Part shown: positions 10,715 through 16,350 of the stretch, one piece after another
How positions within the stretch are numbered: position 1 is the stretch's first letter
Layout of the letters: each line of letters begins with the position of its first letter
From: a bacterium
GTDB lineage: Bacteria; UBA8248
Direction: 5' to 3'
NCBI GenBank assembly: GCA_965213625.1
Contig: CBDBZU010000004.1
Location: 3,808,001 to 3,872,000, forward strand
Length of the DNA: 64,000 bases
Program-made: the position numbers and the translations under genes
The notes under the pieces: generated by a model
Seen by the model: the letters and a program-made list of their open reading frames with translations, nothing else
Told to the model about the DNA's origin: nothing
Databases searched by the model: none

Positions 10715-12031
10715 TCAGCCATAAAGCGCCGTTTGAAGCTGTTCTCGCATTTTCTCGGGCGCCATGCCAAAAGCGCGCAGCGTGTCCTCAGCCTCCTGAA
10801 TAACCAGATCGATATCCTCATAGATTTTGTACGTCTTCGTGTAATCGGGATAGTCAAAACCCATGGCCTGGCCGAGAATCGTCATGAAATTTTCGATTGC
10901 AAAGGGCTCTCCCTTTTCCAGATCGCATAACTCACGATGACAGCTATGATAAACGGTAAGCAGCGAATCCACCCCGGCGCGGCGCGCAGAGTCCATAAGT
11001 TTCTCGCGCATCGCCGCTTTCGCCTCGGGAATGACGAGCGTGGGACACTGATAGGCATGATTCGATAGCTGTTCAATCTCCACGAACTCGAGTCCTGGAA
11101 CCGCTCGCAGGATTTTTATGACGTTATCCTCGACGCCATCGGTTCCCCCATGCAGGTGCACAGCCACGCGCTTTTCGACCTTTTGCGTGAATTCTCCCCG
11201 CAAAGTTTCCAGGTTATCCACCAGGTATTGCGTGATGTGAACAAACGGCAGGATTTCTTCCTCGTTCGGCCCGGAATCACCCGCCATGGGGAGAACCGGT
11301 ATTCCGGTATATAAGTGCTGATATTCGGAGTACTGCATCTGGCAAGTGGGGCAAAACGTGATGACCCTTTCCGGCTCATAAGATTTGAAATAATCAAGGG
11401 ATCGTGCGCCCATCTCCGCACCCCCTTCCAGATCCCCTCGCCTGATGTGGTTGATACCGCAACAATGGCCCACGCCGCCGGCCACCTCATAGTCCAACCC
11501 GAGCCGGTCGAAAACATCGATGCACGAGAGCAGGATATGGGGCGTCTGGAGGATGTTGCATCCAAAGTAAAATACCGCATCCACATTGTTCACATCGGAG
11601 CCCCGTACGGCGGTGAGACGCCTGAAGAGATCGGGCTCGAGCTGGAGAGCGGCCATGAAGCGAATCTTCCGGCTCATATCCTGAAAATAAGACCGACCGG
11701 CCTCTTGAATGTCCGCCTCCTCTAATTCGACGTTTTGGAGCTTGAGCTTGGCGTAGGAGAGCATTTCACGCGGATTGACGTCCTCCGGGCAGGCCTCGAT
11801 GCAAACCCCGCTTTTCTGACAAGCCTTGGCCCAAAGCGCCCCTTCCGGCTCATGAGGGCGACCGTTGATGATGTCGATCACAGATTTCGTCACCCGCTCG
11901 GGTTCCGCGCCTTTGGCTCCTGAATACGAAACCATCGGGCAGACTTCGTAACACTTTCCGCAATGTGTACAGGCTTCGGTGATATGGGTGATTCGCTCTT
12001 CCATAAAACTCTGGTAGGCAGTCGCTTCCAT
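10715..12031 (-). CDS. Fe-S oxidoreductase with a ferredoxin-like N-terminus and CCG domain(s) (HdrD/GlpC-like)
   Basis: CTHCGKCYEVCP and CQKSGVCIEACP; YFGC..HCCG..FCPTC; degenerate second CCG domain (YQCP..YHSC). Confidence 0.88.
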   Translation of the reverse strand: MEATAYQSFMEERITHITEACTHCGKCYEVCPMVSYSGAKGAEPERVTKSVIDIINGRPHEPEGALWAKACQKSGVCIEACPEDVNPREMLSYAKLKLQNVELEEADIQEAGRSYFQDMSRKIRFMAALQLEPDLFRRLTAVRGSDVNNVDAVFYFGCNILQTPHILLSCIDVFDRLGLDYEVAGGVGHCCGINHIRRGDLEGGAEMGARSLDYFKSYEPERVITFCPTCQMQYSEYQHLYTGIPVLPMAGDSGPNEEEILPFVHITQYLVDNLETLRGEFTQKVEKRVAVHLHGGTDGVEDNVIKILRAVPGLEFVEIEQLSNHAYQCPTLVIPEAKAAMREKLMDSARRAGVDSLLTVYHSCHRELCDLEKGEPFAIENFMTILGQAMGFDYPDYTKTYKIYEDIDLVIQEAEDTLRAFGMAPEKMREQLQTALYG

Positions 12032-12310: not shown

Positions 12311-13819
12311 ATGCCGAAAGCTACTGAGAAATACGATGTCGTCGTCGTGGGTTGCGGCAACGCCGCTCTATGCGCATCGCTGGCGGCGCGTGACCAGGGG
12401 GCCAATGTGCTGGTGCTCGAGAAAGCGCCTGAAGCATGGCGCGGCGGGAATTCCGCATTCTCGGGAGGCCTCTTCCGCTTCGCCTTCAACAGCATCGAAG
12501 ACATCTACTCGCTCGTGCCCGATCTTTCCGACGCCGAGAAGGAAAACATCGAGATCGACCCCTACACGTCGGAGAAATTCTTTGACGATCTTGCCCTGCT
12601 GACCGAATACCAGACCGACGGCGACCTCGCCTCCGTCCTAATTCACGAGTCGTTCCCGACACTGCAATGGATGCAGTCCAAGGGTCTGCGGCTCATCCTC
12701 GCAAGCGGGCGGCAGGCATTCAAGGTCGACGGCAAGATGCGCTTCTGGGGCGGACTGGTTCTCGAGATCGTCGGCGGTGGACGGGGCCTCATCGATTCGC
12801 TCCTCGATGCCGCAAACAATGCCGGAGTGGAAATTCGCTACGCATCGAAGGCGATGCGCCTGATCACGGACCCGATGGGCGGCGTGACGGGCGTCGAGGT
12901 CAAAGGCCCCGATGGGCCTTACGAAGTCGAGGCGCAAGGGGTGATTCTGGCATCGGGTGGATTCGAGGCGAACGCCGAGATGCGCTGCCGCTACCTGGGT
13001 CCGGGCTGGGAACTCGCAAAAGTGCGCGGCACCCCCTACAACACGGGCGACGGCATCAAGATGGCGCTCGATATCGGGGCTCAGCCCTATGGCAACTGGA
13101 GCGGTTGTCACGCCGTCGCCTGGGACTTGAACGCCCCGCCCTTCGGCGACCTCACGGTAGGAGAATCCTACCAGAAACACTCCTATCCGTTCGGCATCAT
13201 CGTGAACATCGAGGGCAAGCGCTTCGTGGATGAGGGGGCCGATTTCAGAAACTATACCTACGCCAAATACGGCCGGAACATTCTACAGCAACCCCAGCGG
13301 GCCGCCTTTCAGATATTCGACCAGAAAACGGTTCATATGCTGCGCGACGAATATCGTATCCGCGAAGTCACCAAGGGCGAGGCCAATACGCTGGAAGAAC
13401 TCGCCGGTCAACTCGAAATCGATGTTGATGAGTTCGTCAAAACCGTTCAGGAATATAACGCATCCATCCAGCCGGGCGAATACAATCCGACCATCAAAGA
13501 CGGGAAATGTACGATGGGCATCGACCCGCCAAAATCGAACTGGGCGCTTCCCATCGATGAACCGCCCTACCTCGGCTTCGCCGTCACCACGGGCATCACG
13601 TTCACCTTCGGTGGCATCCGCGTGACGCCCAAAGCGGAAGTCGTGAATACGGAAAACGAGATCATCCCCGGGCTGTTCGCCGCGGGCGAACTCGTGGGCG
13701 GCGTCTACTATTTCAACTACCCGGGAGGCGCGGGGCTTACCCTGGGCTCTGTATACGGCAAACTGGCAGGCGCCGCAGCAGGGCAGCGCGCCGCTGAGGC
13801 GAACACGGCTTCCGCCTGA
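12311..13819 (+). CDS. tcuA: FAD-dependent oxidoreductase, tricarballylate dehydrogenase TcuA-like
   Basis: DVVVVGCGNAA..AA..A, RGGNSAFSGG, VILASGGFEAN, RGTPYNTGDG, GKRFVDEG, GITFTFGG and YFNYPGGAGLT.G.V.G motifs. Substrate uncertain. Confidence 0.8.
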   Translation: MPKATEKYDVVVVGCGNAALCASLAARDQGANVLVLEKAPEAWRGGNSAFSGGLFRFAFNSIEDIYSLVPDLSDAEKENIEIDPYTSEKFFDDLALLTEYQTDGDLASVLIHESFPTLQWMQSKGLRLILASGRQAFKVDGKMRFWGGLVLEIVGGGRGLIDSLLDAANNAGVEIRYASKAMRLITDPMGGVTGVEVKGPDGPYEVEAQGVILASGGFEANAEMRCRYLGPGWELAKVRGTPYNTGDGIKMALDIGAQPYGNWSGCHAVAWDLNAPPFGDLTVGESYQKHSYPFGIIVNIEGKRFVDEGADFRNYTYAKYGRNILQQPQRAAFQIFDQKTVHMLRDEYRIREVTKGEANTLEELAGQLEIDVDEFVKTVQEYNASIQPGEYNPTIKDGKCTMGIDPPKSNWALPIDEPPYLGFAVTTGITFTFGGIRVTPKAEVVNTENEIIPGLFAAGELVGGVYYFNYPGGAGLTLGSVYGKLAGAAAGQRAAEANTASA

Positions 13820-13919
13820 TTTTTCTTTTTCAGAGGGACGAGGCGGTCTACTTCAGATAAAGCGACTGGCCCGGAGTCCTCGGCGGTGATGGCCTGTCCA
13901 AAGCCATGGGCAAGGCGCG

Positions 13920-14498
13920 TTACGCCGTAATGCCGCCCAAGGAGATCGATTCGCCGTTCAGGTTCACCGTGCTTTTCAGCGGAACGGCGGCCGTCACCAT
14001 TTGTTCGGCGAAGCATCCTTGTTTCGCATTCTTGATGACCGCCAGTATTTTCTCCGCCGGTTCATCAGATTCCACCTCAAAGTGCGTACGTACCTCGTTG
14101 CAGCCGGAATTGACCGTGCCCTTGAGGACGGAACCCCTCAAGAAATAGTCGAAATCCACTTGCACCTTGGCGTGCGTGAAGGACACTTTCATCATATGCG
14201 CGTACCGCGCAAGCTGGGTGAGGAGTCAGAACCCGACTCCCATGGCGATGTAGCATAGCGGTTGGGGGTAGGAATCCTCACCGCCGATGCGGGGCGGCTC
14301 ATCACAATACACTTCAAAATGCCTGTGCGTCCCCAGCTTGAGCTGGCCCTTTCCCTCAATCGTTTCGGTGTCGGCGGACATGGTGAAGGCATAGCCCTGC
14401 GTGGGGAGTTCCGGTTTATCGATGGCACGCTCACCGGGAACAGTGCTGTCTTTACGCGGATCGAGAGGTTCCACTTGTCTTGTCTCCTTTGGTGTCAT
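13920..14498 (-). CDS. OsmC-like peroxidase-fold protein with an in-frame TGA (probable selenocysteine at codon 91)
   Basis: ORFs 14226-14498 and 13920-14195 are in the same frame. The joined translation DEPPRIGGEDSYPQPLCYIAMGVGF-U-LLTQLARYAHMMKV...AKQGCFAE puts the TGA at the first conserved OsmC Cys. Confidence 0.85.
14197..14228 (-). promoter_or_regulatory. UGA codon plus bacterial SECIS-like hairpin
   Basis: Minus strand TGA-ctcctcacccagct-TGCGCG-GTA-CGCGCA. The apical loop starts with G 21 nt after the UGA. Confidence 0.7.
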
Positions 14499-14592
14499 AA
14501 GAATGGCGGAAGAAAGACGATATTATGCACGCAAGGGCGGTGCAAGAGAACCGTCGGCACACTCTTTTCTTGTAACCATAAGGGGCAATTTC

Positions 14593-15552
14593 GTGAACCG
14601 AATCGTCGTACCAGATGACTACCCTTCCGTCTTCATGGGAAGCGCCGCTGAAACCCGGTTGCGGGAAATCGGTGACGCGGATATCCACACCTCAAACCCA
14701 CAAACGTCCGAAGAGTTGCTCAGCCGTGTTTCCGAGGCCGATGGCATCATCAACATCCGTGCTTTTTGCAAGTTCGACGCGGATTTTTTCTCGAATTGCG
14801 GTGCTCTCAAGGTACTTTCGATCTGGGGCACGGGCACGGACCACGTCGATTTGAAAGCTGCCGAGAACGCAGGCGTCATTATATCGAACACCCCTGGCGT
14901 AGCCGCAGTTTCAGTTGCGGAGCACACCCTGGCCCTCATGATGGCGGCGGCGCGCCAGATACCCGGAAACGATACCGCCATGCGAGCGGGCGGGTGGCCG
15001 CGGGGACAGATGACGCAATTAAACGGAAAAACGCTCGGCCTCATCGGCCTTGGCGCCATCGGCCGCCAGACGGCCCGTATCGCCGCCGGTATCGGGATGA
15101 AGCTCATCGCCTGGACGTTTCACCCAGACGAAGATTTCGCTGCGGAGGTAGGACTGGAGTTCGTCGACTTGAACGCATTGTATGAACGAGCCGATGTCAT
15201 TTCGATACACGTGCGGCAATCGGCAGACACCATCGGCATGATCGGCGCCGAGGCGTTCTCCCGCATGGGGCCGGATACCATTTTAGTGAACACGGCGCGG
15301 GGACCTATCGTGGATGAAGAGGCGCTCATATTGGCCTTGAAAAACGGCGCCTTAGCTGCAGCGGGTCTCGACGTATTCGATCAGGAGCCTCTGCCCCCGA
15401 ACCATCCGCTCGGGAAACTAAAAAACGTGGTCCTCTCCCCGCACAATGCGGGCATCACGCCTGAGGTGACCGAAGCGGGCCTCCTGATGTCGGTGGAAAA
15501 CGTTGCCGCAGCCCTCTCGGGTAAACCGCAGAACGTGGTGCATCCTTCATGA
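14593..15552 (+). CDS. D-isomer specific 2-hydroxyacid dehydrogenase
   Basis: GKTLGLIGLGAIG, LVNTARG..VDE, AGLDVF..EPL and LSPH motifs. Start GTG 14593 after AGGGG. Confidence 0.92.
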   Translation: MNRIVVPDDYPSVFMGSAAETRLREIGDADIHTSNPQTSEELLSRVSEADGIINIRAFCKFDADFFSNCGALKVLSIWGTGTDHVDLKAAENAGVIISNTPGVAAVSVAEHTLALMMAAARQIPGNDTAMRAGGWPRGQMTQLNGKTLGLIGLGAIGRQTARIAAGIGMKLIAWTFHPDEDFAAEVGLEFVDLNALYERADVISIHVRQSADTIGMIGAEAFSRMGPDTILVNTARGPIVDEEALILALKNGALAAAGLDVFDQEPLPPNHPLGKLKNVVLSPHNAGITPEVTEAGLLMSVENVAAALSGKPQNVVHPS

Positions 15553-15554
15553 TT

Positions 15555-15563
15555 TGCTATAAT
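15555..15563 (+). promoter_or_regulatory. Extended -10 promoter element upstream of the aquaporin
   Basis: TGCTATAAT. Confidence 0.45.
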
Positions 15564-15669
15564 GAGACATGGAGATAGCCTGTTTTCTGTTTCCAGGGTT
15601 CCTCGTATCGATTCGGTAACGACTTAATTTCTCTGCCAATTATTCGCCCGAGTCATCTAGGAGAACAAA

Positions 15670-16350
15670 ATGAGTCCAACAGGAAGGGCCTGCGTAGCGG
15701 AAGCCATCGGCACGTTTTCGCTGTGCTTTATCGGTGCGGGCGCCATCATTTTGAATCAGAAAACGGGTGGAGCCGTGGGTCTCATCGGCATCGCCCTGGC
15801 CCACGGTTTGATCCTCTCGGTGATGATTTCCGCCATGGGGCACGTATCGGGCGGTCATTTCAATCCGGCCGTCACAATCGGCTTCATGGTCACGAAAAGG
15901 ACAGACGGCGGCACAGGCATCTCCTACATCATCAGCCAACTGGTTGGTGGAACCGTGGCCGGTATCCTGTTGAGAATCATTTTTGCGGCCGACGTATGGC
16001 AAAAGGTGAATCTGGGAACACCGACCCTTGCAAGTGACGTGAGTTTCGGCATGGGGATTCTGATCGAAATCATTCTCACGTTCTTCCTCGTCACAGCTAT
16101 CTGGGGCTCCGCCGTGGACGACAGGCACCCCGACGTGGGCGGATTCGCGATCGGCCTAACCATCGCCGCAGACATTCTTATGGGAGGTCCACTCACGGGA
16201 GCATCCATGAATCCGGCGCGCACATTCGGCCCCGCTCTGGCCGGGGGCGGCTTCGACGGCATCAACCACCTCGTCTACTGGATAGGGCCCATCATCGGCG
16301 GCGTGGCGGCGGCCTTGGTGTACAACAACATCCTGATCAAAAAAGAGTAA
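15670..16350 (+). CDS. MIP-family channel (aquaporin)
   Basis: AEAIGTF, SGGHFNPAVT and GASMNPART; AGGAG RBS. Confidence 0.96.
   Translation: MSPTGRACVAEAIGTFSLCFIGAGAIILNQKTGGAVGLIGIALAHGLILSVMISAMGHVSGGHFNPAVTIGFMVTKRTDGGTGISYIISQLVGGTVAGILLRIIFAADVWQKVNLGTPTLASDVSFGMGILIEIILTFFLVTAIWGSAVDDRHPDVGGFAIGLTIAADILMGGPLTGASMNPARTFGPALAGGGFDGINHLVYWIGPIIGGVAAALVYNNILIKKE

Follow-up and report, generated by a model that had tools for sequence, protein, structure and literature searches.

The 64,000-nt stretch of bacterial DNA analysed here (the window) carries two small open reading frames on its minus strand, which the preliminary description had left unspecified, and a standard table-11 gene caller reports them as separate genes (Table 1). 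As that description had noticed, the two share one frame and are kept apart by a single TGA and ten sense codons (LLTQLARYAH) that precede the ATG of the second. When joined they encode the 192-residue protein that had been proposed, and the TGA at codon 91 is the only interruption of this frame between its first ATG and its terminal TAA. That the gene is split by ORF calling, as had been suspected, is borne out in public data, where the exact 90-aa and 91-aa halves belong to clusters with 31 and 50 members, each called as a protein in its own right. The first ATG opens the longest frame, and the true start may instead be a GTG downstream of it, which is preceded by a candidate ribosome-binding site and would give a gene of 184 codons. 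At L040 the frame begins just one codon before the homologous GTG (QVEPL...), which leaves the upstream ATG unavailable there, and among 15 public N-terminal fragments listed, 7 have a length of 82 aa, as expected from the GTG start.

Table 1. Features at the locus, in window coordinates.
Feature	Position	Strand	Description
Predicted OsmC-related selenoprotein gene	13920..14498	-	192 codons from ATG 14498, plus TAA 13922-13920; read-through translation
N-terminal table-11 ORF	14498..14226	-	90 aa, ending IAMGVGF-TGA
C-terminal table-11 ORF	14195..13920	-	91 aa, beginning MMKVSF; in frame with the N-terminal ORF
In-frame TGA, codon 91	14226..14228	-	predicted to be read as Sec; first position of U91-L-L-T94; conserved column
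SECIS-like hairpin UGCGCG-GUA-CGCGCA	14197..14211	-	begins 15 nt after the UGA; spans +15 to +29
Cys162 codon (GCFAE)	14013..14015	-	likely resolving cysteine partnering Sec91; invariant; aligns with Cys of solved OsmC-family proteins
Candidate ribosome-binding site and alternative start	14472..14489	-	AAGGAG 14489-14484, 9-nt spacer, GTG 14474-14472; from sequence
Conserved N-terminal segment PGERxIDKPELP	~14400-14441	-	residues 20-33
FAD-binding flavoprotein gene	12311..13819
D-2-hydroxyacid dehydrogenase gene, then aquaporin (MIP) gene	14401-16350	+
CCG and 4Fe-4S dicluster protein gene	10715-12031	-	heterodisulfide-reductase-like

The read-through gene is convergent with a gene for an FAD-binding flavoprotein and divergent from one for a D-2-hydroxyacid dehydrogenase, which is followed by an aquaporin (MIP) gene. 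Because the 383-aa ORF that starts at GTG 14401 overlaps the 5' end of the read-through gene, the true start of the dehydrogenase is probably further downstream. The same arrangement recurs at 21 close orthologous loci. Local losses are few: at L051 and L056 the adjacent dehydrogenase is matched only at paralogue level, and L057 has neither this dehydrogenase nor the aquaporin. The dehydrogenase and/or the aquaporin are also adjacent in the more distant orthologues L070, L072, L073, L076, L077 and L079, two of them from Tectomicrobia, and none of these neighbours occurs at the loci of the other paralogue groups. We regard the conserved neighbourhood as a weak hint of function. Further along, a gene for a protein with CCG and 4Fe-4S dicluster domains lies just upstream of, and divergent from, the flavoprotein gene, and these two genes form a pair that is conserved in the genus. 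A promoter and terminator scan of positions 13700-14750 returned no promoter-like site and a single terminator-like site, on the opposite strand inside the coding region, no more than was obtained with shuffled sequences.

Family assignment and active-site columns of the read-through protein

The read-through protein matched the NCBIfam model NF041052 ('OsmC_like_Se, OsmC-related (seleno)protein') with 182.1 bits against a curated cut-off of 95, and the match ran uninterrupted across the TGA, from residue 40 to 182 and from model position 2 to 144 of 144. In a six-frame search of the genome with the same model the window gene scored 173.9 bits, with one TGA inside the match, while Pfam OsmC (PF02566) covered residues 73-175 of the protein with 47.5 bits (cut-off, 27.5). 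The TGA is the first position of U91-L92-L93-T94, an instance of the published UxxT motif, which is listed for the 'OsmC-like protein' family (COG1765) in table 3 of the 2005 account of the Sargasso Sea selenoproteome (PMC1088965); the same entry is repeated in the reviews PMC9312934 and PMC13188914. The statement in the preliminary description that OsmC-like selenoproteins figure in earlier surveys was correct, since they have been reported from 2005 onwards (PMC1088965) and are now covered by the dedicated model NF041052.

Structure prediction placed the protein in the same superfamily. For AlphaFold2 we used an alignment of 37 sequences, comprising the window protein, 31 others of 34 cluster representatives and five homologues with Cys at the TGA column (Cys forms); the metagenomic loci L162 and L167 were excluded because their C-terminal parts are out of frame. 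The resulting model had a mean pLDDT of 91.0 and a pTM of 0.79, and its top Foldseek matches in the PDB were all of the OsmC/Ohr type (2onf, 1lql, 6mjn, 1vla, the Ohr protein 1n2f, and E. coli OsmC 1qwi/1nye), with a probability of 1.00 for each of the first six. The match to 2onf had E = 3e-10, 64 chains were found at E <= 0.001, and the listed matches were all OsmC/Ohr-family or structural-genomics entries. In the model the TGA codon falls within a long central helix (residues 80-102), and Cys162 sits at the junction between helices 148-161 and 163-171.

A profile search against PDB sequences aligned the TGA column with the first conserved Cys of 3cje, 2opl, 1vla, 9wo1 and 2onf, and Cys162 with the second Cys of 3cje and 2onf. 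Both redox columns, 91 and 162, are invariant in 37/37 aligned sequences. The earlier proposal that Sec would stand at the column of the first catalytic Cys thus agrees with the alignment to solved OsmC-family proteins, and the second Cys that had been expected near the C-terminus is the invariant C162 of GCFAE. One detail needs correction: the Cys of 'P.P...C' (C82), which had been quoted as part of an OsmC/Ohr motif, is neither catalytic nor conserved, its column being occupied elsewhere in the family by T, A, N, S, G or P, and lies outside the redox pair, the first-catalytic-Cys column being that of the TGA itself.

The protein thus resembles the OsmC/Ohr thiol peroxidases (E. coli OsmC, Pseudomonas and Xylella Ohr) in fold and in having its two redox residues where theirs are, in the central helix and at a helix junction, about 70 residues apart. 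It differs from them in sequence, with only 10-22% identity, in the predicted Sec in place of the first Cys, and in an extra conserved N-terminal segment, PGERxIDKPELP, that extends beyond the OsmC domain. This segment is covered by neither the Pfam nor the NCBIfam model; it is missing from the most divergent Sec forms and from the Cys forms, and is modelled with a confidence of only 64-80. The closest solved sequence relative is 3cje, the OsmC-like hydroperoxide resistance protein Jann_2040 of Jannaschia sp. CCS1 (profile E = 1.5e-17), a structural-genomics entry in which GCVMTQ aligns with GF-U-LLTQ, and KKGCFLEQ with KQGCFAEQ, and which, unlike the window protein, is a Cys form.

Conservation of the TGA column and of the sequence beyond it

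Three matches over the NF041052 cut-off were found in the host genome, each with exactly one TGA. Across the set formed by this genome (G000) and 40 relatives, 31 of the 41 genomes had at least one match over the cut-off, and among the matches listed exactly one TGA was present in 100/100 that exceeded the cut-off, the listed matches below it having mostly none. On inspection of 22 loci, 20 orthologues including the window gene and two paralogues, the TGA occupied the identical column in all of them. The same held for 80/80 loci from named genomes (78 recognized by pattern; L121 and L122 by eye). These 80 were the loci retained from among 206 relatives, pattern matches that lay beyond the tblastn matches having been left out (L077 at 882, L111 at 1411, L128 at 1406), and the titles of their records name Nitrospinota/Nitrospinaceae, Candidatus Tectomicrobia and Betaproteobacteria/Burkholderiales; a few labels of metagenome-assembled genomes (MAGs), namely Streptomyces, Chitinophaga and Bordetella, are implausible, and we distrust them.

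Homologues with Cys at this column came from two further searches. Scanning metagenome contigs with Cys forms as seeds gave 42 loci, of which 35 have TGA, five have TGT or TGC, and two stop short of the column, and a protein search gave six proteins, five of them full-length Cys forms with GFCLLTQ. The column was expected to hold either Cys or TGA in homologues, and so it does: Cys in 5/5 Cys-form proteins that cover it, and TGA in all Sec-form loci. Such recurrence of TGA at one column greatly exceeds what chance would produce. Among the metagenomic Sec forms, L162 and L167 have C-terminal halves that run out of frame after about residue 140, and these may be assembly errors or decaying copies.

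For 19 orthologues, dN/dS was 0.00-0.04 over the 70 codons before the TGA and 0.04-0.15 over the 99 codons after it, values indicative of purifying selection on both halves. Moreover, the four codons that follow the TGA (+1 to +4; L, L, T, Q) encode the same amino acids in 77/77 distinct sequences, yet differ at the third position (H, 0.68-1.61 bits).

These data bear on the reading in which the TGA is a real stop, so that the locus would encode an N-terminal piece of 90 (or 82) aa and a separate 91-aa protein starting at ATG 14195. It would account for the separate listing of the halves in the public clusters described above, and for the conservation of an ATG-ATG after the hairpin. We nonetheless judge it very improbable, since the ten codons between TGA and ATG keep their amino acids while third positions vary, a single profile model spans the TGA, and the Cys forms are uninterrupted single proteins; moreover, the OsmC fold as modelled would require both halves, the central helix being predicted to cross the TGA.

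The two paralogues that exceed the cut-off in the host genome, L025 (G000:C4:315598-316023, +) and L026 (G000:C4:1340336-1340737, -), both have the TGA and a hairpin, which in L026 has the compensatory stem GGGCG/CGCCC and in L025 is a bulged variant. A fourth OsmC-like gene, L030 (G000:C4:1639826-1640218, -), also has TGA at the first-Cys column (FIAGHAG-U-GLYTLL); because it scored only 51.1 bits on NF041052, under the cut-off, it may represent another OsmC subfamily with Sec.

A SECIS-like hairpin downstream of the TGA

The hairpin that had been pointed out just downstream of the TGA is present as described, TGCGCG-GTA-CGCGCA at 14211-14197 of the minus strand, with its loop G (14205) at the 21st base after the UGA. 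Its core consists of five G-C or C-G pairs, the outer U-A pair occurring in only 64/95 sequences. How well it is supported depends on the kind of evidence: RNA folding did not single it out as unusually stable, whereas conservation, covariation and frozen synonymous sites all favoured it. Specifically, the folding energy of a 66-nt stretch had z = +0.72, 150 of 200 shuffled sequences folding at least as well, so that the case for a SECIS element rests on the comparative data.

The first line of comparative evidence comes from synonymous sites in 77 distinct 57-nt sequences around the TGA. Third positions ahead of the hairpin vary freely, with entropies of 1.97 bits at Gly -2, 1.61 and 1.56 at Leu +1 and +2, and 1.02 at Thr +3. 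Inside it they are frozen, the Ala codon at +6 being GCG in 72/72 cases, Arg +7 CGG in 77/77 and Tyr +8 TAC in 76/77. Ala +9 is GCG in 73/77, and the four exceptions (GCC, GCT) are exactly those in which the partner base has changed. Conservation of the peptide A-R-Y-A could explain part of the conservation of the hairpin, but not the frozen third positions.

The second line is covariation. Over 95 distinct sequences of Sec forms, bases pair in 96.0% of 570 cells, and double-sided changes occur in three of the six pairs: 24-38 (nine; UA 64, GC 8, CG 1), 25-37 (two; GC 86, GU 6, AU 2) and 26-36 (13; CG 82, AU 7, GC 6). Cells with double-sided changes numbered 24 against 3.5 expected, and the covariation score was reached by 0/500 shuffles and was lower in every slid register; the variants come from few lineages, two pairs are invariant, and the outer pair is unpaired in 22/95 sequences. 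The loop G is present in 94/95 sequences, the exception being L159 with U, and the loop of L154 is GUC. The hairpin is nearly identical across loci labelled Nitrospinota, Tectomicrobia and Betaproteobacteria, and is absent from 4/4 distinct Cys-form genes. In the metagenomic Cys forms L156-L158 the same stretch folds as a different, stable hairpin, GCAGCGG...GCUGCGC (-14.1 kcal/mol), so that Sec forms are not alone in having a hairpin here.

An Rfam scan of positions 13800-14600 at E <= 10 matched no bacterial SECIS family, and gave only two chance-level matches, mir-60 (18.3 bits) and a frameshift site (15.2 bits), both far under the gathering scores. A lower stem predicted by folding, between GGGU ahead of the UGA and ACCC behind it, was rejected because orthologues with GGAU do not keep the pairing.

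The full SECIS element of E. coli fdhF is much longer than the window hairpin. For the latter, covariation supports only 5-6 bp and a 3-nt loop, and, unlike in fdhF, no conserved bulged U is evident. Shared with the fdhF type of bacterial SECIS (PMC1088965) are the intragenic position of the stem-loop, shortly 3' of the UGA, and the G in a small apical loop. Overall, the comparative data describe a well-supported short bacterial SECIS, on which SECIS predictors could be tried out.

Selenocysteine machinery of the host

The preliminary description had supposed that selABCD would be found elsewhere in the genome. Searching the assembly (4.15 Mb in four contigs) with curated cut-offs for each component, we found all four above them: selA (564.4 bits), a full-length selB adjoining it (G000:C4:183279-185165; 388.1 bits), selD (333.5 bits) and one tRNA-Sec, which scored 75.9 bits on RF01852 and was called by ARAGORN as tRNA-SeC with anticodon tca (UCA). 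The selD gene (L011, G000:C4:1518852-1519814, +) has an in-frame TGA of its own in GG-U-GSK, so that selenophosphate synthetase would itself be a selenoprotein.

A complete Sec pathway is relevant to a further reading, in which a standard amino acid is inserted at the UGA, either by near-cognate read-through with Trp or Cys or under a reassigned code. Low-level UGA read-through exists in bacteria, and the Cys forms show that Cys works at site 91. Against this, TGA terminates the neighbouring gene 12311..13819 and so is still a normal stop in this genome, the code not having been reassigned; the full selA/selB/selD/tRNA-Sec set is at hand; and a covarying hairpin stands where a bacterial SECIS is expected and is lost in the Cys forms. 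We consider decoding as a standard amino acid highly unlikely. Scarcely credible at all is the default reading of an in-frame stop, in which a nonsense mutation has made the gene a pseudogene or the TGA stems from faulty sequencing or assembly of this genome. Nothing specific speaks for it, and it is at odds with the same TGA column in all 22 related and all 80 named-assembly loci and in 35/42 metagenome loci, and with purifying selection on both halves; conservation of the TGA together with that selection excludes pseudogene, sequencing error and a pair of independent genes alike.

Discussion

The locus very probably holds one gene for a Sec-containing member of the OsmC/Ohr superfamily, belonging to the known 'OsmC-like selenoprotein' family (the COG1765/YhfA branch, NF041052), and that its product is a genuine selenoprotein of the OsmC-like family seems to us close to certain on the comparative sequence evidence. 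Like the members described by Zhang, Fomenko & Gladyshev (2005; COG1765/YhfA), it is recognized by the NF041052 score, by UxxT and by Sec or Cys at the first catalytic Cys column, and immediately 3' of its UGA stands a SECIS-like hairpin whose small apical loop contains a G. We see no substantial difference from that family, of which it appears to be a further member, from an uncultured lineage labelled Nitrospinota.

Decoding, a step that the comparative data support, would proceed through SelB, which, carrying Sec-tRNA(Sec), would bind the short GC-rich hairpin beginning 15 nt past the UGA, with Sec inserted at codon 91 in place of termination. By analogy with OsmC and Ohr, the protein is probably a domain-swapped dimer. 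The peroxidatic residue of OsmC and Ohr is their first Cys, and Sec91, in the central helix, would therefore occupy the peroxidatic position. There it might reduce a hydroperoxide, a selenenylsulfide then forming between Sec91 and the invariant Cys162, and the enzyme would be regenerated by a thiol reductant, for which thioredoxin and a lipoylated protein are candidates. This peroxidase chemistry, drawn from the analogy, we consider somewhat more likely than not. Much more tentative, and in our view rather unlikely, is the idea that the nearly invariant 15-nt minimal SECIS of the family (GCGCG-GUA-CGCGC), which recurs under the labels Nitrospinota, Tectomicrobia and Betaproteobacteria and in three paralogues per genome, is 'portable', being usable by many SelB proteins and travelling with the gene in horizontal transfer, and that the linkage of one orthologue to the divergent dehydrogenase and MIP genes hints at a dedicated module of peroxide-conducting channel and Sec peroxidase.

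The family itself is already known, having been described in 2005 and given its own NCBIfam model, and the selenoprotein richness of the lineage is also in print: three MAGs of taxon UBA8248 (Nitrospinota/Nitrospinaceae/Nitrospinae) are given among the ten bacteria richest in selenoprotein genes, with 48-54 genes (PMC13326102, a database paper of 2026), and one of the three, FO_M_Nitrospinota_01, is the source of our loci L072, L086 and L116. Nothing here alters existing knowledge of selenoproteins. Full-text searches yielded only bioinformatic papers on OsmC-like selenoproteins and no biochemical study. The present host, uncultured and labelled Nitrospinota, has at least three Sec paralogues of the OsmC-like family in addition to other selenoproteins, and a lineage with three or four such paralogues per genome is a reasonable starting place for functional study of the family. 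Because standard table-11 callers cut the gene in two, proteomes of this lineage that derive from such calls under-report its redox enzymes.

Tandem pairs of Sec-form genes, about 600 nt apart, were observed at L072 (3240, 3853), L076 (1261, 1867) and L079 (3264, 3852), their hosts being one Nitrospinae MAG and two Tectomicrobia MAGs. A public 'hypothetical protein' of 180 aa from a Nitrospinaceae MAG (P0003) begins at the MMK that follows the TGA of one family member, continues stop-free into the N-terminal half of a neighbouring copy and terminates at the GVGF-TGA of the latter. Either it is a chimera created by gene calling, or it points to a two-domain fusion protein containing two Sec residues.
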